Shown: one piece after another, positions 29,431-64,000 of the stretch | Layout of the letters: each line of letters begins with the position of its first letter | Numbering within the stretch: the first letter of the stretch is position 1 | Source: Chloroflexota bacterium | GTDB taxonomy: Bacteria > Chloroflexota > Dehalococcoidia > Lucifugimonadales > UBA3495 | Assembly: GCA_028874075.1 (NCBI GenBank) | Contig: JAPPLU010000049.1 | Coordinates: forward strand, 122,412-186,411 | Length of the DNA: 64,000 bases | Reading direction: 5' to 3' | Made by a program: the position numbers and the translations under genes | The notes under the pieces: generated by a model | The model's input: the letters and a program-made list of their open reading frames with translations, nothing else | Told to the model about the DNA's origin: nothing | The model's database searches: none

Positions 29431-29826
29431 TTATGCCATGGTGAACCAGGGAGACCAGAGCAGACGAAGGTTGGACCTGGGTTCCGGCGCCGGCAGTTCC
29501 CGCATAAGCAGGCAGTCGTACTTGCTCTCCCAGGCCCAGGGAAGCAGAGCCAAGAGCATCCTCCGGGGTTCGGGGACGTCGCCCGCTTCCCGCACCTGGT
29601 CCAGGTAGTTGTGCAGGTGCATCCAGGTGGTTAGCCGGAAACCTTTGTCGGCGATTCTACGAATAATCTCCAAAGGCTTGGGCGTTTCCTGTTGGTCGGC
29701 CACGGCCCGGGTGTAGTCGTAGTGGACCTCTTCGGTGACGCGGCGCATACGGTAGATGGCCAGTTCCTTGTGGTACTTGCGCTGGAGGGCGCGGATTTCT
29801 CTTCTGATTTCGCTGAGGGTTCTCAT
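29431..29826 (-). CDS. Hypothetical protein (131 aa, Arg-rich helical N-terminus)
   Basis: ORF with a strong RBS (AAGAGGAGACAACC-ATG). No motif recognised. Confidence 0.5.
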   Translation of the reverse strand: MRTLSEIRREIRALQRKYHKELAIYRMRRVTEEVHYDYTRAVADQQETPKPLEIIRRIADKGFRLTTWMHLHNYLDQVREAGDVPEPRRMLLALLPWAWESKYDCLLMRELPAPEPRSNLRLLWSPWFTMA

Positions 29827-29905
29827 GGTTGTCTCCTCTTTCTGTTTTGTCCACGAAGGGCACGTCCTTCGACTGGCTCAGGATGAGCGGGATAAAAGGA
29901 GATGA

Positions 29906-30108
29906 GAATTTTTTGAAAAGTGTCCCATCCTGTCCCATTTTGGGCCGTTCTTGCCGTCACCCCCGGCCCCTTCCGCCAGAGGTGGGCGTTCCGCACCGTC
30001 AAGGAGAAAGGGACTATTTGCCGGGCTGTCATGCGTGTCAGCCCTTACGGGGATTAGCCTATATTCTTAATGGTGGAGATGGGTTATGCAGGTTGGCAAG
30101 GGGGGAGC
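29906..30108 (+). promoter_or_regulatory. Conserved intergenic module, copy A (two conserved blocks flanking a REP-like hairpin)
   Basis: Block 1: GAATTTTTTGA...TGTCCCATCCTGTCCCATTTTGGGCC (29906-29946). Block 2: TATTCTTAATGGTGGAGATGGGTTATGCAGGTTGGCAAGGGGGGAGC (30062-30108). Both blocks recur with the same order and similar spacing at 39183-39395. Confidence 0.5.
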
Positions 30109-30372
30109 ATCAGTGATTTGGCGAGCAGAGCAATGGCAGGAGTGTACCACCTTTTCTCTGGTCATTGCAGAGCAGGCGAGGATCACGGTTCTACCCTGGC
30201 AAGGTTCCCGCCCACGGAGGGGAAGGACTGGCTCTGCCAAAGGGGCGCTAACCCGGCCTGGATAACCGCCAACCCGACAATGCTCAATGCAGCTACCGAC
30301 CTTTTGCGCTATACTACCTCCGGCACTCAACCGGTTAGTTACGTTGCAATTAATTGATTCAGGGAGCGTGGT

Positions 30373-31506
30373 ATGGACCTGGGTCTGACCGAAATTCAGC
30401 AGATGTTAAAGAGCAGCGCGCGGGAGTTCCTGTCCCAGGAATGCCCGCTGACGCTGGTGCGGGAAATGGAAGAGGACGACCGGGGCTACACCGACGAACT
30501 CTGGCGCCAGATTTCCGGTCTCGGCTGGCCCGGCATCGCCTTCCCCGAGCAATACGGCGGTACGGGAGGCAGCTTCCTGGACCTGGCCGTCCTGCTGGAG
30601 GAGATTGGGCGGTCCCTGACCCCTGGGCCCTTCTTTTCCACCGTGGTCCTGGGCGGCTTTACCGTGCTTGACGCCGGGACCGATACACAGAAGCAGTATA
30701 TCCTGCCCGGCATTTGTAGTGGCCAGACGCTGATGACCCTGGCCCTGACGGAAGCCACCGCCAGCTATGAACCCTGGGGTATTGAGACCACCGCCATCCG
30801 GGAGGGAGAGGGGTTCCGCATCGATGGGCAGAAGCTCTTCGTTCCCGACGCCCACGCTGCGAGCGTCCTGCTGGTGGCCGCCCGCACCTCTCAGACCCAG
30901 GACCCGGCCCAAGGTATCACCCTGTTCTTTGTTAACGCCGACACTCCGGGCCTGACCATAAACAAGCTAAGTACCATCTCTTCCGACCGTCAGTGCGAAG
31001 TGGTCCTGGATGGCGTTACCGTCCCCGCCCAAGCCGTGCTGGGCGAGGTGGATGGCGGCTGGCCCATTATCCAGCGGGCGCTGCAGCGCGCCGTGGCCGG
31101 CAAGTGCGTTGAAATGCTGGGCGGAGCCGATGCCGTGGTCGAGAGGACCGTGGAGTACGCCAAGCAGCGCACCCAGTTTGGCCGGTCCGTGGGTACCTTC
31201 CAGGCGGTCCAGCATCACTGCGCCAACATGGCCACCGACGTGGAGGGCTGCCGCCAGATTGCCTACCAAGCGGCCTGGAAAGTTTCGGAGGGGGAACCTT
31301 CAGAGAGGGAGGTGGCCATGGCCAAGGCCTGGGTCAGCGCTGCCTACCAGCGGGTCTGCAACCTGGCTCATCAGTGCCACGGGGCCATCGGCTTCACCAA
31401 GGAACACGACCTTCAGCTTTATACCCGCCGCGCCAAGGTCCAGGAACTCACCTACGGCGACGTCAACTACCACAAAGAACTGGCCATGCGCCAGATAGAG
31501 GGCTAA
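30373..31506 (+). CDS. Acyl-CoA dehydrogenase
   Basis: 377 aa with the typical ACAD layout: LGWPGIAFPEQYGG, TEATASYEPWGIETTA, QFGRSVGTFQAVQHHCANM, and the C-terminal YTRRAKVQELTYGD. Confidence 0.85.
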   Translation: MDLGLTEIQQMLKSSAREFLSQECPLTLVREMEEDDRGYTDELWRQISGLGWPGIAFPEQYGGTGGSFLDLAVLLEEIGRSLTPGPFFSTVVLGGFTVLDAGTDTQKQYILPGICSGQTLMTLALTEATASYEPWGIETTAIREGEGFRIDGQKLFVPDAHAASVLLVAARTSQTQDPAQGITLFFVNADTPGLTINKLSTISSDRQCEVVLDGVTVPAQAVLGEVDGGWPIIQRALQRAVAGKCVEMLGGADAVVERTVEYAKQRTQFGRSVGTFQAVQHHCANMATDVEGCRQIAYQAAWKVSEGEPSEREVAMAKAWVSAAYQRVCNLAHQCHGAIGFTKEHDLQLYTRRAKVQELTYGDVNYHKELAMRQIEG

Positions 31507-38017: not shown

Positions 38018-39088
38018 CTAGAACTCCCGTCGGGCCAGGAAGTCCACTAACTGGTCTACCTCGTCCCGTACCCACCCGGGCAAGTCCACACCGGCCAGGG
38101 CCAGGGTGGCCTGTTCGGCGCTCTCGGAGGTCAGGCGGTTGGCGTACTGGGGCGCGCCCAATTCGTCCATTATGGTCATCACCCGCTCGACATCGGAATC
38201 GGACAGTTCCTCCTGGGCATAGATGCGGTGCAGGTCCTGGCGGGCTCCGCCGCTGGCGCGATCCAGGGCAAATACGGCGGGAAAGGACTTCTTCCGGCGG
38301 CGGATATCACTTTCAGTGGACTTGCCCGTGGCAACCTCATCTCCCCACACACCCAGGTAATCGTCGCGTATCTGGAAAGCCCGGCCCAGGTAGTCGCCGA
38401 AGCTGGCAAAGGCGGCGGTAACCTGCGGATCGTCATTGGCCAGCACCGCCCCGATCTCCACGGAGCAACGGATGAGCGCACCCGTCTTGCAGGCAATCAT
38501 GTGGAGATACTCGTCGGTGGTGATTGTGGTGCGGCCCTCGAACCCCAGGTCCAGGCACTGGCCCTCAATCATATCCAGGTAGCCTTCGGTCAGGATGCGG
38601 GAGACGCGGACGGCGGTTCCAGGAGAGACCCCAAGCTGGGCGCCCCGCAGCACGGACAGATCGCCCAGGCACTGCATGGAGTCCCCGGCCACCAGGGCTT
38701 TCGGCTGGCCCCAGATGGACCAGACGGTGGGCTGATGGCGGCGCTCCATATCCTGGTCCTGGATGTCGTCGTGAATCAGCGAGAAGTTGTGAATCAACTC
38801 GATGGCGGCGGCGGCGGAGACTGCGTGGGCCAGATCGCCACCCAGGGCCTCGCAGGCGAACATGCACAGGGTGGGACGCAGGGCCTTGCCCTGGGAAGCG
38901 GGCGTGGCTGCGGGGTTGCCGTCCTGGTCAACCCAACCCAGGTGGTACTGCAGGGGAACGTTCAGTTCGTCCAAGCCGGGGAATGGCACTATGGCGGCCA
39001 GCCCCTCCTCCACCAGGTCCTTGTACCTGGCAAACATAGCGGGCAAAGGCGGGCCCGGGGGAACAGCGGGAGGAATCTGGCTGCTCAT
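38018..39088 (-). CDS. Polyprenyl (farnesyl/geranylgeranyl) diphosphate synthase
   Basis: First Asp-rich motif LIHDDIQD; second FQIRDDYLGVWGD. Confidence 0.85.
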   Translation of the reverse strand: MSSQIPPAVPPGPPLPAMFARYKDLVEEGLAAIVPFPGLDELNVPLQYHLGWVDQDGNPAATPASQGKALRPTLCMFACEALGGDLAHAVSAAAAIELIHNFSLIHDDIQDQDMERRHQPTVWSIWGQPKALVAGDSMQCLGDLSVLRGAQLGVSPGTAVRVSRILTEGYLDMIEGQCLDLGFEGRTTITTDEYLHMIACKTGALIRCSVEIGAVLANDDPQVTAAFASFGDYLGRAFQIRDDYLGVWGDEVATGKSTESDIRRRKKSFPAVFALDRASGGARQDLHRIYAQEELSDSDVERVMTIMDELGAPQYANRLTSESAEQATLALAGVDLPGWVRDEVDQLVDFLARREF

Positions 39089-39182
39089 GGCTTAACGCGC
39101 CTGTGAGTTGATGAGAAGATATGGTGCATTCAGGGTAACATAGTTTCATCCATCCACGAAGGACATCAAGGGGCGCGATGGT

Positions 39183-39395
39183 GAAAATTTTTTGATTATT
39201 ATCCCATTTTGTCTCAAATTGTCTCATTTTTGCCCTTGGCCGGGACCTCGTCCCGGTGTGGGTCAAGGGGTATGCCATCAGGAACGGGAGGCCACAAGGC
39301 CCGCCCCTACGACGGGCAGGCCAAGGCGGCGGTTCCTGTTCCATGGTCTGTATTACTATAATGGCGATGGGTTATGCAAGGTGGCAAGGAGGGAG
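39183..39395 (+). promoter_or_regulatory. Conserved intergenic module, copy B
   Basis: Block 1: GAAAATTTTTTGA...ATCCCATTTTGTCTCAAATTGTCTCATTTTTGCCC (39183-39235). Block 2: TATTACTATAATGGCGATGGGTTATGCAAGGTGGCAAGGAGGGAGC (39351-39395). Contains a TATAAT box. Confidence 0.5.
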
Positions 39396-39610
39396 CCAGG
39401 GCAATCGCGCTTTACGCAGATTTGACGCTGATCGAAGTCGAAGGATCAAGGGTAATTCCTCTGAGGCTCCCTAAAGTTCTCCAGCGGTTTCAGACGAAAG
39501 GGATTCAAGCCCTTCTGCAAGCTCAGGGAGACATGATTTCGGACCGCAGCAGACCGGGCCCTCAAGGCGCGTTTACGGTGGCGTTTCCGGGCGCACGGTT
39601 GCTGTTGGAC

Positions 39611-39656
39611 GGGAAGACAAAGAAGCGGCCTGGCGTGCTCATAGACGCCAAGCCGC
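39611..39656 (-). terminator. Rho-independent terminator of the SBP gene (possibly bidirectional)
   Basis: Minus strand: GCGGCTTGGCGT-CTATGAGC-ACGCCAGGCCGC (12-bp stem, one G-U) followed by TTCTTTGTCTT. Confidence 0.75.
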
Positions 39657-39684
39657 TCTGTTCTGGCAGCAGGGACGGCCGCGC

Positions 39685-41679
39685 CTATTCCCGGTGGGGC
39701 ACGTCCTCCCAGTTGCTCAGCCAACTTACGTTGCCGGCCATGACTTCCCACTCGTCAATGTTGGGACCGACGGGCCAGACGGAGTTTTCCTCGTAAAGGA
39801 CAATCTGGGCCACGTTCTCGAACATCCACCGGGCCATTTCCGCGGTCTTGGCCCAGCGTTCTTCCTCGTTGGTCAAGTCCGACGCCTCGTCAAACAAGGC
39901 CTCCAGGTCCGGGTGTTCGAAGCCGAAGTTGAAGGAGCCCTTGGGGCTGTAGATGCGGAAATAGCCCAGTACCGGCTCCACGCTGGGCCCTGCATTATGG
40001 CCGCTAACGCCCAGAGCGGTGCGATCCACGGTGCCCGGCCGGAAGCCGGAGTAGGGGCTGGTGCTTTGAACGGTGGTTATGCCCACGTCTTCCCACATGG
40101 TGGCCACGGCCTTGGCCGCCTCGATGTTGCCGGCCTGGGGCCGGGGGTACAGGTACATGTTTATGGAGAAGCCGTTGGGGTAGCCGGCCTCGGCCAGAAG
40201 CTGCTTCGCCATTTCGGGGTCATACTCGTAGGTCAACTGGTCCAGGCCGAACTGCTTGATGCGCTCGTCGTGACCGCTCCAGCCCTGGTGGTAGAAGGGA
40301 CGACCCTCGCCGAAGGCCAGGTTGTTGACCAGCTTTACACGGTCGATGGCCATGCTCATGGCCTGGCGCACCTTGCGGGCCCGGTCCCACTCCGCCGAGT
40401 TTACGTCGCGGTCGCAGGCCACCCAGGGAGCGTCGGCCCCGCACTGACCAGGAGCGCTGTAGGCGGCGGTGGCGCCCAGGGGCACCTTGGGCGATGTCCC
40501 GTCGGCTGCGGGCTGGTGGAAGGGGTGGTCGGGGTAGTACTGCTGGCCATGCACGTTCAGAAACTGGTAGGCGCCGCCGGGGAAGCGCATGAACTTCACG
40601 CCGGGCAGGTTCTCCTGCTTGATGGCCTGGATGGACTCGGCGCTGAAGGAGCCGGTGTCCAGCTTGCCGACCTGGAAGTTGGCGACTCGGGTGGCGTCCT
40701 CGGCAATCTCCCACCAGACCATTTCCTCCCAGTCGGGGGGACGGCGCCAGTGGTCGGATACGGCGGCCATGCGACGGAACTCGTCGGTCTTCACCTCCAT
40801 CAGCTGCCAGGGGCCGGTGCCGATGGAGTCCAAATTGGCCTGGTCGGGCCCCACCTGGTCGAAGTGGGCCTTGCTGTGGAAGGCCATGGAGGTGCTGGGC
40901 GCCTGGCTGTACCAGGTGACTTCAAAGGTTGGCTTGGGGCGGGACAACTGAACGGTGTGCTCGTCGATCCTGGTGATTTCGCAACCGTCGCAGCCGAAGA
41001 GCCGGCGCATGCCGCCGGCCGATGTATGCACCGAACCCTCTTCAATCACGCTTTCCACAGTGAAAATAAAGTCGTCGGCATTGAAAGCGCCGTAGCCGTC
41101 GTGGAACTGGGCCGTGTCTTCCAGGTAGAAGGTAAAGGTATCGGCATTCGGGCTGGCTTCCCAGTTTTTGACCAGGCGGGGCAGTCGCTCTCCGGTGGGC
41201 GACGTGGCCCACATGGGTTCGTGGGTGATGAAATACTCGAACCTGGCGTTGAGGAAGGGCATGTTCTGCAGTATTCCCACGAAGGGGCCGATGTCGGTCA
41301 TGCCCACGTTAAGGGTGCCGTGGGCCATCATGGCCTCGGCCGGGGCGTCTGAAGCCACCGGGGCGGGAACGGGCGTTGCAGCCGGGGAACTGCTGGCCGC
41401 CGCCGGCGCGGAAGACCCGGAGGCGGGGGCGGAAGACGGCTGCGATGCGCTGCTGGCCGGAGCGGCGGACGGTGCGGACGCTGCAGGTTGGGAAGAGGGG
41501 GCGCCGGAGGCAGCCGGAGCTTCTGCGGCGGGGGCGGCCCCTGATGATGACGCAGCCGGCGCTGCGGCGGGTTCCTGGGCAGCCGATTCTTCCGGAGCCG
41601 CGGCCCCGCAGGCGATGAGCAACCCTGCCATCAGGATAAATATTCCAGTAAGACTGAGCCTGGGCCAACCAATGGTCAT
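39685..41679 (-). CDS. ABC transporter substrate-binding lipoprotein, family 5
   Basis: Lipobox LMAGLLIACGAA, a ~110-aa Ala/Ser/Pro tether, then a family-5 SBP body. GAAGGAGG precedes the ATG. Confidence 0.85.
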   Translation of the reverse strand: MTIGWPRLSLTGIFILMAGLLIACGAAAPEESAAQEPAAAPAASSSGAAPAAEAPAASGAPSSQPAASAPSAAPASSASQPSSAPASGSSAPAAASSSPAATPVPAPVASDAPAEAMMAHGTLNVGMTDIGPFVGILQNMPFLNARFEYFITHEPMWATSPTGERLPRLVKNWEASPNADTFTFYLEDTAQFHDGYGAFNADDFIFTVESVIEEGSVHTSAGGMRRLFGCDGCEITRIDEHTVQLSRPKPTFEVTWYSQAPSTSMAFHSKAHFDQVGPDQANLDSIGTGPWQLMEVKTDEFRRMAAVSDHWRRPPDWEEMVWWEIAEDATRVANFQVGKLDTGSFSAESIQAIKQENLPGVKFMRFPGGAYQFLNVHGQQYYPDHPFHQPAADGTSPKVPLGATAAYSAPGQCGADAPWVACDRDVNSAEWDRARKVRQAMSMAIDRVKLVNNLAFGEGRPFYHQGWSGHDERIKQFGLDQLTYEYDPEMAKQLLAEAGYPNGFSINMYLYPRPQAGNIEAAKAVATMWEDVGITTVQSTSPYSGFRPGTVDRTALGVSGHNAGPSVEPVLGYFRIYSPKGSFNFGFEHPDLEALFDEASDLTNEEERWAKTAEMARWMFENVAQIVLYEENSVWPVGPNIDEWEVMAGNVSWLSNWEDVPHRE

Positions 41680-57505: not shown

Positions 57506-57643
57506 GGGGCGGGTTTGAAATCCGCCCCTACGTGGGTTGGCCGGGTACCATCACCCCCACCCTAGCCCCCCCGTCGAGGGAGAAGGGACTATTCGGGGTT
57601 GCCAGGGCAGCACATAGGTCTGCCCCTACGTGGGTTGACCGGG
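57502..57643. repeat. Cluster of REP-like hairpin elements (families 1 and 2)
   Basis: GTAGGGGGCGGGTTTGAAATCCGCCCCTACGTGGG; CATCACCCCCACCCTAGCCCCCCCGTCGAGGGAGAAGGGA; GGGGTTGCCAGGGCAGCACATAGGTCTGCCCCTACGTGGG. Confidence 0.65.
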
Positions 57644-58481: not shown

Positions 58482-58730
58482 GGGGGAAGGGGATTCGGAC
58501 GTGGATGGGGAGGGTGATCCTTCGACGAGCTCCGGATGAGTGGGGAAAGGGGTTGGGACGGGGTTGCCAGGGCAGACACATAGGTCTGCCCCTACGCGGC
58601 GGACGGGAACGACGGGTTTTGGGAAAGGGGTAGGGCAGGGTTGGAGCCCGCCCCTACGTGGGTTTCCGTCCTTCGGCCCGCCAAAGGTCCGCCAGAGGCG
58701 GATTCCGCAGGCTCAGGATGAGTGGGGACG
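58482..58730. repeat. Cluster of REP-like elements (families 1 and 3)
   Basis: CCTTCGACGAGCTCCGGATGAGTGGGG; GGGAAAGGGGTTGGGACGGGGTTGCCAGGGCAGACACATAGGTCTGCCCCTACGCGG; GGGAAAGGGGTAGGGCAGGGTTGGAGCCCGCCCCTACGTGGG; CGCAGGCTCAGGATGAGTGGGG. Confidence 0.65.
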
Positions 58731-59002: not shown

Positions 59003-59050
59003 GGTAAAGCGCATTTATTTGGCAGCCTGTGAACCGGCCAGCCCGTTAAC

Positions 59051-62000
59051 TTAATCCAGCCCCGAGATGGTCAGTGTGAAACTTCCCGCCGTCCCCGGAC
59101 TGTAGGTCGTCGCCTCTATGGTGTAGGTCCCTGCGTCCAGGGTCTCACTTATCCGCGAGTTCAGGTTGACGCCGCCGCTTTCTATGTCGTCGTTTTCGTG
59201 TTCTGCGTCCCCGCTACGGGCTTCCCCTTGTCTCAGGTATAGGTAGGGGTCAACGCTGGATACAAGCTCGATCGTTATTTGGGAAGCCTCTTCCAGCGTA
59301 AAGGTGTAGTAACGGGCATACCCACGGCCCGACACCTGCGACTGGCAACCCGCCACCCAACTGCCACCGACAGAACCATCAGCGCTAATGGTGGACCCGC
59401 ACTGGTCGGTTTCCGTTCCACTGCTGTCGTCCGTGCCGCCTCCCAGGCCAGAAATAGTCAGGGTAAAGGCACCAGTGCTGCCAGCAGCATAGGTCGTCGC
59501 TTCGATGGTGTAGGTCCCTGCGTCCAGGGTCTCGCTTATCCGCGAGTTCAGGTTCACGCCACCGCTGGCGATGTCGTCATTTTCGTGCAGGGCATCGCCC
59601 GCTCGGGCGTCGCCGGGCCGCAGGTACAGGTAGGTGTCCACGTCGGAGGTCAGCTCCATGGTTACCGCCGATTCCTCGGCCAGGGTGAAGGTGTAGTAGC
59701 GGGCGTAGCCCCGGTCGGGGACTGATGATTCGCAACCCGGGGCCCACGTGCCGGTGGTGGCGCCGTCCGTAGTGATGGCGGTGGCGGCGCAGTTGTCCGT
59801 TTCTTCATCTCCGGGCTCTGTTTCCATTTCATCCTCGCCATCGCCGTCCAAGCCGGTGAAGGTGAGGGTGAAGGTTCCGGATTGGTCTCCACCGTAGGTT
59901 GTGGCTTCGATGGTGTAGGTACCGGCGGCCAGGGTCTCGCTGATCCGCGAGTTCAGGTTCACGCCACCGCTGGCGATGTCGTCATTTTCGTGCAGGGCAT
60001 CGCCCGCTCGGGCGTCGCCGGGCCGCAGGTACAGGTAGGTGTCCACGTCGGAGGTCAGCTCCATGGTTACCGCCGATTCCTCGGCCAGGGTGAAGGTGTA
60101 GTAGCGGGCGTAGCCCCGGTCGGGGACTGATGATTCGCAACCCGGGGCCCACGTGCCGGTGGTGGCGCCGTCCGTAGTGATGGCGGTGGCGGCGCAGTTG
60201 TCCGTTTCTTCATCTCCGGGCTCTGTTTCCATTTCATCCTCGCCATCGCCGTCCAAGCCGGTGAAGGTGAGGGTGAAGGTTCCGGATTGGTCTCCACCGT
60301 AGGTTGTGGCTTCGATGGTGTAGGTACCGGCGGCCAGGGTCTCGCTGATTCGGGAGTTGGTATCCGTCCCGGGCGCCACGTCGTCATTGAAGGCCACCGC
60401 GACTCCGGTCCGGGCCGTTCCGCTCCGCAAGTAAAGGAACGGGTCTACGTCGGACACCAGGTCAATGGTCACCGCAGACTGCTGGTCCAGGGTGAAGGTG
60501 TAGTAGCGGGCGTAGCCCCGGTCGAGGACTGATGATTCGCAACCCGGGGCCCAGGTTCCGGTGGTGGCGCCATCAGTGGTGAGGGTGAAGCCGCAGCCGT
60601 CCGGCGTAGTTTCCTCCTCTCCAGCGCCGCCGCCAAGGCCGGAGATGGTCAAGGTGAATTCGCCCGATTGGCCGGTATCGTAGGTGGTGGCTTCGATGGT
60701 GTAGGCACCTGCCGTAAGGGTAGCCGTTATCCGAGAGTTGGTGTTTGCCCCGGCCTCTATGTCGTCGTTCTCGTGGAGAAAGTCTTCCGATCGGGAGTCT
60801 CCGGCTCTCAGGAAGAGGTAGGGGTCCACGCTGGAGTTAAGCTCGATGGTTACCTGGGTGGTCTCCTCCAGGGTGAAGTTGTAGTACTGGGAGTAGCCGC
60901 GGTCAGCGGCGGTCGACTGGCACGACGGCGACCACGAGCCGGTGGTGGCGCCATCGTTGGTGAGCTCGTGGACGCAGTCGCCTACGTCGGTGGCGGGAAG
61001 CTTGGCGAGGCCGTAGCCCCAGGTATTGTTGGGGACGGCGCCCCTGGGTTCGGCGTTGTCCTTGAGGTAGGCGGCGGTTTCCTCAGCCGTCAAGTCGGGG
61101 AAGCGCTGGCGGACCAGGGCGGCCATGCCGGCCACGTGAGGGGAGGCCTGGCTGGTACCGGGGAACCAGCAGCCCTGACCGTTGTCGCGCCGGGTGCGGT
61201 ACTCGTAGCTGACGGATGCGGCGCAATCGATCCCTACGATGTCGGGCTTGATGCGACCGTCGGGGGTGGGGCCCTGGCTGCTGAAGGGCTCAATGGTATT
61301 GACGTCGTAGAAGGGCGATGCTCCCACTGCCAGCAGGCCGGGGTTGGCGCTTTCGGCCGGGTTGGCGATGCTGCCATTGCCGGTATGGATCCCAAGTCCG
61401 CCACGACCCGAGAACATCTCCAATTGGATCCAGTTGGGGACGGGCCCACCGGCGTGAACTATGATGACGCCAACATCGTTGCTGTCAATTGGTGACCGAA
61501 GAGAGAAGAATTCAAAGGGCTCATGGTCGCTTGCTCCCGACTGCGGCACTCTGCTTCCAATGAATCCCCATCCCGCTGGGATGCTCAAGAGGGCGTCGGT
61601 GCTTCTGTCCCACAGGTACATGTCCAGGTCCGTGCTGGCGCCGCCCCAACTGTCTTCCCAGCGCAGCTGGAAGGTATAGCGCTGGCACTCCAAGAGGGTA
61701 ATGGGGTTTATTTCGACGCCGGAACTGTTGAAGCTCATTATGCCATCGCCGTCGTGGTCAGAGAGACTTCCGAACCAGGTGTCTTCCGCAGAGTTTCCTG
61801 CTGCGTTCACCCAAATGATGCCGTCATCGACAGCCTGGTCAATTGTGTTCAAGGGACTGCTGCTGTAGGGAGAGGTTCCGTCTCCGCGACTGCCGTAGTG
61901 GGTCCAGCCCACGGAGTAGTTGATGACCTGTACTCCCTGGGAGGCCATCCACGCAGCGGTTGCCTGCAGGTCTCCCCATGACCCGGGCTGGGAGATGTAG

Positions 62001-62951: not shown

Positions 62952-63080
62952 GGGGGAAAGGGGTAGGGGCGGGGTTGCCAGGGCAGACACGTAGGTCTGC
63001 CCCTACGCGGGTTGACGGGTTGGGGGGTTGGGGGAAAGGGGTAGGGGCGCACAACCGTGCGCCCCTACGGGTTGCCAGGG
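62952..63080. repeat. Two REP-like family-1 elements
   Basis: GGGGGAAAGGGGTAGGGGCGGGGTTGCCAGGGCAGACACGTAGGTCTGCCCCTACGCGGG, and GGGGGAAAGGGGTAGGGGCGCACAACCGTGCGCCCCTACGGG (12-bp perfect stem). Confidence 0.65.
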
Positions 63081-63089
63081 GGGGATGGG

Positions 63090-63224
<135 letters not shown>

Positions 63225-63287: not shown

Positions 63288-64000
63288 TTAGCGGCGGGGC
63301 ATTACGAAGGGCATGGCGATGGCGATCACCGCGGCCACGATGGCGATGATGATGGCGATGATGCCAGTGGTGCCGGAGGCGTCGGCGCCGGCTGCGCCAG
63401 CGGGGCCGGCAGGACCCTGGGGGCCCTGGGGGCCAGCGGCGCCGGCTGCGCCGTCAGCGCCAGCGGGACCGGCAGCGCCGGGGTCGCCCTGGGGGCCTAC
63501 GGGGCCACGGGCGCCGTCAGCGCCAGCGGGACCGGCAGGGCCATCGGCGCCGGCAGGTCCAGCGGGACCCTGGGAGCCAGCGCCAGCAGCGCCACGGGGA
63601 CCGGCGGGGCCAGCAGGACCGGCGGGGCCAGCAGGACCGGCAGGACCGGCGGGGCCCGGAGGGCCGATGCGGCCCACGGTGCCGGAGGCCTGGGCGCTGA
63701 GGTTGAAGCCGGGCTGGATTTTGCCTATTTCATAGTTGTTGAGCTTTTCCATGGCATCCACACCGGCGACCATGAAGCTGATGGGGCCGGAGCCGGAGGG
63801 CTGCATTACCTGGAGAGAGAACTTGCCGCCAGCCATGGTCATGGCGGAGCCGAGCTTCTGGCTGCCCTGCATGGCGACGATATCGGTGTCAATGGGCGGC
63901 GTTGCGCCGTTGAGCATGGCCGTGCCGAGCAGGACGTGGGGCGGGCTCTGCTGCGCGAATGCCGTGAGAGGCAGCGCAGAAAGCATGGCCACTATCGCAA
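63288..64000 (-). CDS. Collagen-like (G-X-Y repeat) protein with C-terminal TM anchor; 5' end runs off the window
   Basis: ...[12 protein letters not shown] signal-like N-terminus (reading frame still open at 64000). A ~110-aa globular part. About 100 aa of [20 protein letters not shown] triplets. C-terminal [21 protein letters not shown] followed by PRR. Confidence 0.75.

Follow-up and report, generated by a model that had tools for sequence, protein, structure and literature searches.

A promoter-like block facing a gene-less spacer in an uncultured Dehalococcoidia genome probably belongs to the remnant of a multicopy cassette next to a decayed MITE

In a 64,000-nt stretch of an uncultured Dehalococcoidia genome (contig JAPPLU010000049.1, positions 122,412 to 186,411; hereafter the window), two copies, A and B, of a repeated module were recognized. 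Copy B lies in the spacer between two minus-strand genes, a polyprenyl synthetase gene (38018..39088; hereafter the synthase) and a gene for a solute-binding protein (SBP) of the SBP_bac_5 family (39685..41679). A preliminary description of positions 39183-39656 had proposed that its plus-strand end, which we call block 2, launches an orphan RNA of about 300 nt. We compared this spacer with copy A and with further loci, here numbered L001 onward, and found that the module belongs to a multicopy cassette built around the gene of a 131-aa protein, p131. The reading that we hold to be rather more probable than the others taken together is that copy B is a remnant of this cassette without p131, that its outward-facing block 2 is probably a −10-type promoter reading through a miniature inverted-repeat transposable element (MITE) to the SBP terminator, and that any RNA so produced would be incidental. 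The features of the two copies are as follows; REP stands for repetitive extragenic palindrome and MFE for minimum free energy.

39127..39143, minus strand: the promoter-like −10 region of the synthase itself, CTATGTTACCCTGAATG on that strand; the last stretch in common with module-free relatives
39154..39232, minus strand: block 1, a putative p131-type promoter/operator region without its gene, aligned with copy A; the same block occurs in about 20 loci
39240..39312: variable spacer; includes the small hairpin CCGGGAC-CTC-GTCCCGG (39240-39256) and, at 39287-39312, the REP-like unit GGGAGGCCACAAGGCCCGCCCCTACG
39350..39396, plus strand: block 2, the outward-facing conserved cassette end, with GTATTAC, TATAAT (39357-39362), GGCG and ATGGGTTATGCAAGGTGGCAAGGAGGGAGC
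39391..39471, plus strand: stem GGGAGCC/GGCTCCC, extended to about 20 pairs in the MFE, centroid and three-sequence consensus structures
39397..39580, plus strand: decayed MITE of 184 nt, assigned by its inverted repeats and by alignment to a complete member
39623..39658, minus strand: intrinsic terminator of the SBP gene, with a 14-bp stem; a related hairpin follows the SBP gene in the module-free locus L037
29431..30120: copy A, an intact cassette, with the p131 gene (29431..29826, minus strand), block 1 (about 29903-29940), a REP-like hairpin (about 30023-30048) and block 2 (about 30057-30118, plus strand)

When the letters were inspected, the sequence statements previously made for 39183-39656 were all borne out. 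Block 2 of copy B consists of TATAAT plus GATGGGTTATGCA..GGCAAGG; TACTATAAT lies at 39354-39362, with TATAAT at 39357-39362, and GATGGGTTATGCAAGG begins at 39366. The hexamer and the conserved box, which had been placed directly next to each other, are thus both present but not strictly adjacent, as three nucleotides (GGC) intervene. Downstream of block 2 there is indeed no plus-strand gene, the next gene being the convergent SBP gene. The hairpin given as 39625-39656 is real, at 39623-39658, and it scores as a terminator on the minus strand only, where its tail, CTTTGTCTTC, passes the terminator scan; the plus-strand tail, CTCTGTTC, holds 4 T in 8 and falls under the scan threshold; plus-strand transcripts could be stopped weakly by the hairpin. 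The 8-nt terminator loop (39633-39640), GCTCATAG in the window, is replaced in L008 (OZ219949.1) and L118 by its exact reverse complement, CTATGAGC, a hairpin-loop inversion. GGGAGCC (39391-39397) and GGCTCCC (39465-39471) are complementary as had been described, and the MFE and centroid folds alike contain this pairing; in the extended stem, an internal MITE segment is joined to the last part of block 2 and to the MITE left repeat.

In block 1, at the other end of copy B, a CACGAAGG motif (39154-39162) is accompanied by an A/T tract and by three iterons phased at 10 nt, TATCCCATTT, TGTCTCAAAT and TGTCTCATTT (39200-39229). On the minus strand block 1 carries GAGACA (39215-39210), a 17-nt spacer and AAAAAT (39192-39187), now directed toward the synthase gene. 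This putative promoter (39187-39215, minus strand) stands directly upstream of the −10 region of the synthase (in the 39089-39143 stretch), and the cassette may supply or alter the upstream promoter region of that gene. The motif A(A/T)ATATGGTA(A/C)(C/T)CTGAAT is also found upstream of the synthase in L037 and L032, and homology ends just upstream of it. Between the two blocks, most other copies are filled by REP-like units of type GGCGGCCACAAGGGCCGCCCCTACG and GGGCAGACACATAGGTCTGCCCCTACG, and units related to that of copy B occur elsewhere in the window (repeat families D5 and D15). Hairpins of type GGGCAGACACATAGGTCTGCCCCTACG, in which the stem is followed by CCCTACG, lie at 57507-57636, 58542-58664, 62953-63010, 30023-30048 and 39287-39312.

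The spacers of copies A and B share just two blocks, namely an A/T tract followed by TGTCYCAT repeats at 10-nt spacing (block 1) and TATT..T.AT..GATGGGTTATGCArGkTGGCAAGGrGGGAGC (block 2). The 24-nt core of the latter, GATGGGTTATGCArGkTGGCAAGG, has two exact occurrences in the window (30078 and 39366) vs. 0.00 expected from shuffles. Searching one genome per species with the exact pattern ATGGGTTATGCANGNTGGCAAG, in which 20 of 22 nt are fixed, we found 25 places, all in Dehalococcoidia metagenome-assembled genomes (MAGs), 7 of them in OY761558.1. The pattern scan yielded 27 block-2 copies and further ones were reached through p131, which makes block 2 an element of about 60 nt present in more than 30 copies and confined to a clade of uncultured Dehalococcoidia. 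A profile search for diverged extra copies in the window and the loci returned none, and block 2 had no match in viral contigs. When stacked on their ATG, the copies give the consensus gTATTnnTATGGTGGAG, then ATGGGTTATGCAGGnTGGCAAGGGGGnAGTGTCAGnAATT, with no similarity past about +45, and homology between paralogues ends +27 to +50 after the ATG. Whether found by pattern or through p131, the copies keep TAYGRT, GGCAAG, GGG and AGTGTCAG, and their flanks differ.

The hexamer of block 2 is TATGGT, with the variants TATAAT, TATGAT, TACGGT and TATTGT, and copy B has the perfect TATAAT. T1, A2, T3 and T6 of TAYGRT are kept in nearly all of the more than 30 copies (the exception is CATGAT in L016), which is the pattern expected of a −10 element, and block 2 is probably a −10-type outward promoter. 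A sigma-54 promoter, defined by GG at −24 and GC at −12 at a fixed spacing (TGGCAC-N5-TTGC), was also considered: the sigma-54-like TGGCAAGGAGGGAGC fits both window copies, but most family copies have GT, TG, AT or others at the GC position, and TGGCAAGG.GGGAGC was rejected as such a promoter because the −12 GC is not kept in the family. The gene after block 2 is co-oriented with it in 17 of 22 distinct loci (our own tally, with orthologous loci counted once), which fits an element sitting at, or tolerated at, the 5′ side of genes. These genes are functionally unrelated, encoding for example acyl-CoA dehydrogenase, UvrA, SecA, SDR, GGT, DUF1800 and YtxH proteins, and this argues against a regulon defined by function. 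The idea that block 2 makes an RNA antisense to the p131 mRNA was discarded, as the cassette holds no second block-2-like sequence.

The intact cassette reads p131, block 1, a variable spacer with REP-like hairpins and, at the far end, the outward block 2; in copy A, an acyl-CoA dehydrogenase gene follows at 30373 (plus strand). In L005 (OY761558.1), an orthologue of this gene (94% identical) is divergent from block 1, and in the window (29827-30372 spacer) it lies downstream of block 2, so that the module is inverted relative to the acyl-CoA dehydrogenase gene. By tblastn, p131 is divergent from block 2 and 210-360 nt away from it in at least 14 of the 27 copies. Its paralogues are 70-85% identical, with 6 in one genome and at least 3 in the source MAG. 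The family comprises 81 clusters at 90% identity, all "hypothetical" or unnamed, including the window's own protein (Chloroflexota MAG), and an exhaustive profile search gave 245 representatives. With 29 invariant columns in its alignment, p131 is a real conserved protein family; its members are confined to a Chloroflexota/Dehalococcoidia clade. The AlphaFold model is all-helical, with a predicted local distance difference test score of 83.5. Neither Pfam nor PHROG contained a match to p131, a Foldseek comparison of the model with the PDB returned nothing below E = 1, and the p131 profile weakly matches a protein of helicase-associated (HA, PF03457) repeats, which we regard as a weak lead only.

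Block 1, found in about 20 loci, is always upstream of p131. On the p131 strand, it shows an iteron ending in a −35-like hexamer (GGCACA, GGAACC, GGGACA or GAGACA), 17 nt and AAAAAT, a geometry constant in the 19 block-1 copies listed, and the iterons overlap the −35-like hexamer. From this arrangement we infer that block 1 is the p131 promoter with operator repeats. Homology between paralogues starts at the p131 stop codon and, in some genomes, further out, where there is a distal iteron block at about −1,000 to −1,100. The divergent copies L106, L107, L111 and L112 carry an extra gene for a 141-156-aa helix-turn-helix (HTH) protein just upstream of, and co-oriented with, p131 (L106:2009-2434, L107:1970-2431, L111:729-1199 and L112:921-1391). 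The HTH protein is similar to terminase small subunits (phrog_2538, E = 1e-7 to 4e-6), and in these copies its gene starts 75-110 nt from a diverged block 2 that faces away from it. L106 is part of a run of small co-oriented genes that includes an N6/N4 DNA methyltransferase, a setting that suggests a phage or satellite origin for the pair of HTH and p131 genes.

A p131 homologue (42% identical) and a block 2 are found in L015 inside an 807-bp element with the ends CAGGGCAATCGCG and CGCGATTGCCCTG and a perfect 10-bp target duplication, GAATTGTTCA (10/10). Such inverted repeats and target duplication show that the cassette has been mobile. In L108, a degenerate left end lies at −950 and a good right end at +74, and right ends occur in L109, L010 and L019 at +86 to +214. 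The same CAGGGCAATCGCG/CGCGATTGCCCTG ends bound a family of MITEs of 166-218 nt, without an open reading frame (ORF) and with several internal subfamilies, whose complete members carry CAGGGCAATCG...CGATTGCCCTG. Six MITEs and the L015 cassette, all repeat-bounded, were examined for target duplications, and four of these seven elements have one with 8-10 of 10 positions matching. The family members are:

L001:5679-5844, L001:6361-6569 and L001:7108-7302
L024:640-857
L025:7118-7333
L116:1888-2054
window, 39397-39580

The segment 39397-39580 starts with a perfect left repeat, CAGGGCAATCGCG (39397-39409), and ends with a degenerate right repeat, CGCGTTTACGGTG (39568-39580), which matches the consensus at 9 of 13 positions; in the orthologue L118 the right repeat, CGCGATTACCGTG, matches at 11 of 13. 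Over its full 184 nt, the segment aligns to the complete MITE L001:7108-7302 (z = 6.7 vs. shuffles of the internal sequence). It contains the internal dispersed core GGGATTCAAGCCCTTCTGCAAGCTCAGGGAGACATGA (39500-39536), and the dispersed core GCCCTTCTGCAAGCTCAGGGAGACATGA is present in other family members too. Judged by its ends and its alignment, 39397-39580 is a decayed MITE of the CAGGGCAATCGCG inverted-repeat family. It makes up about three quarters of the body of the proposed transcript and truncates block 2 at +31. No autonomous partner or transposase with CAGGGCAATCGCG ends was seen, and no search was aimed at one. A short dispersed motif, (G/C)CCTTCG(A/G)CAGGCTCAGG(A/G)(T/C)GA, occurs both in spacers and inside MITEs (window 29865-29895 and 39500-39536; L001, L023, L024, L109 and L111); we take it to resemble a repeat from many phyla. 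In the collection of papers that our literature search covered, none links Dehalococcoidia with MITEs and insertion sequences.

Copy B lacks p131 and is found with the same gene order in three loci only, the window, L008 and L118. In relatives whose synthase is 87-93% identical (L037, L114, L115 and L117), the order is SBP, a 381-aa Meth_synt_2-like gene and synthase, with no module. L116 has a truncated 381-aa gene plus MITEs, and L113 a different neighbourhood; all these loci have in common only the SBP terminator hairpin and the −10 region of the synthase. Since the close relatives are module-free, copy B is a recent, lineage-specific replacement. A pseudogene remnant of the 381-aa gene within the copy B interval was looked for, and tblastn gave no signal. 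The dedicated RNA gene of about 300 nt that had been proposed is not borne out by these comparisons: paralogues share nothing past about +45, most of the would-be gene is a decayed MITE with inverted repeats like those of the ISAs1 family, and the segment replaces a gene that the relatives have kept. What stands of the orphan-transcript proposal is a conserved promoter-like block that faces no gene, non-coding sequence after it and a stem that is kept.

Consistent with the absence of a known RNA core asserted earlier, an Rfam scan of the whole window gave 0 matches at the gathering score. At E up to 10, the best Rfam match in 39050-39750 was CyaR, on the minus strand, with 21.7 bits vs. a threshold of 47, and a tRNA/tmRNA scan found none. 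Between 39366 and 39665 the predicted folding energy is unremarkable (z = −0.8 for the plus and −1.5 for the minus strand). Aligning the spacer, as the preliminary description had suggested, gave a divided answer. The body of the transcript is 0.88 identical between the window and L008, which is no excess over other parts of the spacer upstream of the SBP terminator (0.83-0.91) or the four-fold sites of three neighbouring genes (0.76-0.90, pooled 0.81); the GGGAGCC/GGCTCCC stem is kept in the three orthologues by a G:C, G:U, A:U series. The view that ORF 39374..39796 is unlikely to encode a protein is upheld: the ORF exists, but codon 23 is a stop in the syntenic orthologue L008, which shows that no conserved protein is encoded.

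Based on these results, we propose that a multicopy cassette has spread in an uncultured Dehalococcoidia clade, copy B being a remnant with the MITE directly against it. With p131 absent, block 1 faces the polyprenyl synthetase gene, and block 2 faces the convergent SBP gene at its 3′ end. An RNA polymerase starting from block 2, if this is active, would begin near 39366-39369, cross 30 nt of the cassette end, the 184-nt MITE and 40 nt of spacer, and stop, probably inefficiently, at the SBP terminator hairpin. On this view, the RNA from block 2 would arise as a side effect of the insertion of mobile elements and would not represent a separate gene.

Several observations weigh against this model. 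A sigma-70-type promoter is expected to have, besides a −10 hexamer with A2 and T6, a −35 hexamer placed 16-18 nt before it. No −35 hexamer is recognizable for block 2, and a two-hexamer sigma-70 scan calls no plus-strand promoter; upstream of the −10-like hexamer, the copies split into subfamilies without a common −35. A simple outward promoter does not explain why about 45 bases after the hexamer are very strongly conserved across species. At copies A and B, no terminal inverted repeats were found within 2 mismatches, so that mobility is shown for relatives of these copies and not for the copies themselves, and there is no target duplication around 39397-39580, whose flanks (AGGAGGGAGC and GCGTTTCCGG) mismatch. 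The remaining difficulty is covariation. In the plus-strand MFE structure, the window and L008 differ by 3 compensatory double substitutions vs. 0.38 expected (P = 0.004), and in the minus-strand structure by 1, which is no excess. A consensus structure of the window, L008 and L118 has 3 double changes in 98 pairs, including two series, at 39395/39467 (in the GGGAGCC/GGCTCCC stem) and 39569/39582, that run from G:C in the window through G:U in L118 to A:U in L008; the G:U intermediates pair only in plus-strand RNA. Taken together, the compensatory changes and the plus-strand-only series hint at selection on RNA structure, which an incidental transcript does not need.

That hint is the main argument for an exapted structured RNA, in which block 2 would drive a stable, MITE-built plus-strand RNA of about 260-300 nt whose fold is under selection and which could act as a small RNA or as an antisense or roadblock against the SBP gene. 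Controls with slid partners gave 0 double changes, and columns are less often variable when paired than when unpaired (10% vs. 18.7%; P = 0.055, marginal). However, only three close orthologues, 85-96% identical and hence of low power, were available, and the consensus structure, derived from the same three sequences, tilts the counts toward itself. Values as high as those observed arise in 80 of 500 runs of the shuffle control, eight pairs are broken, each in one sequence, and the counts of broken pairs and of substitutions at paired positions are non-significant once the terminator is excluded. A further, long-range helix between block 2 and the MITE core (columns 3-20 with 144-160) never varies and is uninformative. 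The covariation signal is thus real but weak, and together with an ordinary folding energy, the lack of an Rfam family and a recent MITE absent from relatives with an 87-93% identical synthase, it leaves an exapted RNA unlikely, although it is far from a fanciful idea. The conservation downstream of the hexamer and the missing −35 would in turn be accommodated if block 2 were a protein-binding or recombination site, for example an operator (bound by p131 or by the HTH protein that resembles terminase small subunits) or a subterminal site for mobilization, and copy B made no plus-strand transcript. In the main family, only about 12 nt separate block 2 from the right terminal repeat outside it (L108), the distance of block 2 from the divergent HTH gene start in the divergent copies is the usual place of an operator, and its ATGG(T/G) motifs resemble, in our own reading, inverted block-1 iterons. 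Yet the retention of T1, A2, T3 and T6 across diverged subfamilies is what marks a −10 hexamer, most loci have a co-oriented gene downstream, and a binding site and a promoter are compatible with each other; a site of this kind in place of a promoter seems to us quite improbable.

A small protein or leader peptide made from block 2, MGYAGWQGG... (ATG at 39367) or MQGGKEG... (ATG at 39374), would be extremely surprising. In the pattern-selected copies, the two freely varying positions are third positions of Gly codons in the MGYAGWQGG frame, but these are also the only positions that the search pattern left free. ORF length ranges over 13-200 codons in this frame and 8-140 in the other, nothing is conserved past about codon 12, and indels in the G run shift the frame while GTCAG stays conserved. 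Moreover, copies reached without the pattern lack one ATG or the other (L107, AAGGGTCTTCC; L110, TTATCC), and the ORF from 39374 is closed early in L008, as described above. We also entertain, as a speculation with little chance of being right, that transposons have distributed the p131 cassette as a regulatory module: the iterons would be bound by p131 itself or by the HTH protein of the divergent copies, and the block-2 promoter with its 45-nt leader would be controlled in this way, so that unrelated neighbours (acyl-CoA dehydrogenase, UvrA, SecA and, via block 1, the synthase) would come under common control, with the MITE transcript of copy B kept as a structured RNA.

The interpretation that we favour, a cassette remnant with an incidental transcript, can be set beside known systems. 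Promoters reading outward from the ends of insertion sequences (IS) and MITEs are exemplified by pOUT of IS10 and by the Correia elements of Neisseria. Block 2 is like these in being promoter-like, within about 100 nt of an element end, outward-facing and upstream of unrelated host genes; as a putative promoter conserved for about 45 nt into the would-be transcript, it is atypical. The divergent copies L107, L111 and L112, where the order is block 2, the divergently oriented HTH gene and p131, recall the divergent regulatory regions of phages; unlike those, they show no phage structural genes and no match in viral contigs, and the main family and the window lack the HTH gene. The ISAs1 family of IS is defined by its DDE transposase, ends beginning CAGGG and direct repeats of 8-10 bp; one member, ISArsp11, has repeats CAGGGCTGATGC... 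and a 10-bp direct repeat (PMC6305408). The elements described here (39397-39580 and its relatives) are alike in having ends beginning CAGGGC and 10-bp target duplications; like other MITEs, they are short (166-218 nt), hold no ORF and occur in many copies per genome. The assignment to ISAs1 is made on the ends alone, as no transposase was seen and none was searched for. In the window copy, the right repeat is degenerate and a target duplication is not detectable. In a mobile insertion cassette (MIC), such as MIC231 of Bacillus cereus (Chen et al. 1999, via PMC6542083), one or more passenger genes are bounded by IS-type inverted repeats and a target duplication, without a transposase. The 807-bp element of L015, with a p131 homologue, block 2, IS-type repeats and a 10/10 duplication, corresponds to this description, and L108 does so roughly. 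Most p131 cassettes, including both window copies, differ from MICs by having no recognizable terminal repeats, and the combination seen here, in which the passenger p131 has a promoter region with iterons and is joined by an outward block under strong conservation, is not known as a feature of MICs.

Elsewhere in the window, three further repeats were observed. At 63078-63194, very long homopolymer runs, about 24 C and then about 25-30 G, form perfect inverted repeats; these may reflect an error of assembly or an unusual structure. In 59050-60981 there are five tandem repeats, each about 381-405 nt long and with identities of up to 100%, and a 9-nt-periodic GC-rich array at 63365-63685 has the appearance of a minus-strand repeat coding for collagen-like Gly-X-Y.

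These results replace a candidate non-coding RNA gene by mobile-element debris, and they indicate that a conserved promoter-like box beside a gene-less spacer can mislead. For this clade of uncultured Dehalococcoidia, they bring to light a previously unannotated multicopy protein family, p131, its iteron-bearing control region and a MITE/MIC family with ISAs1-like ends. Again and again, the p131/MITE elements lie immediately 5′ of genes with housekeeping or metabolic roles, and they have taken the place of a gene that lay between the SBP gene and the carotenoid/polyprenyl genes. The conserved 60-nt block would make a handy marker of the clade and a candidate promoter part, and the cassettes, if both blocks work as promoters, would reshape the transcription of their neighbours in organisms that have no genetic system.

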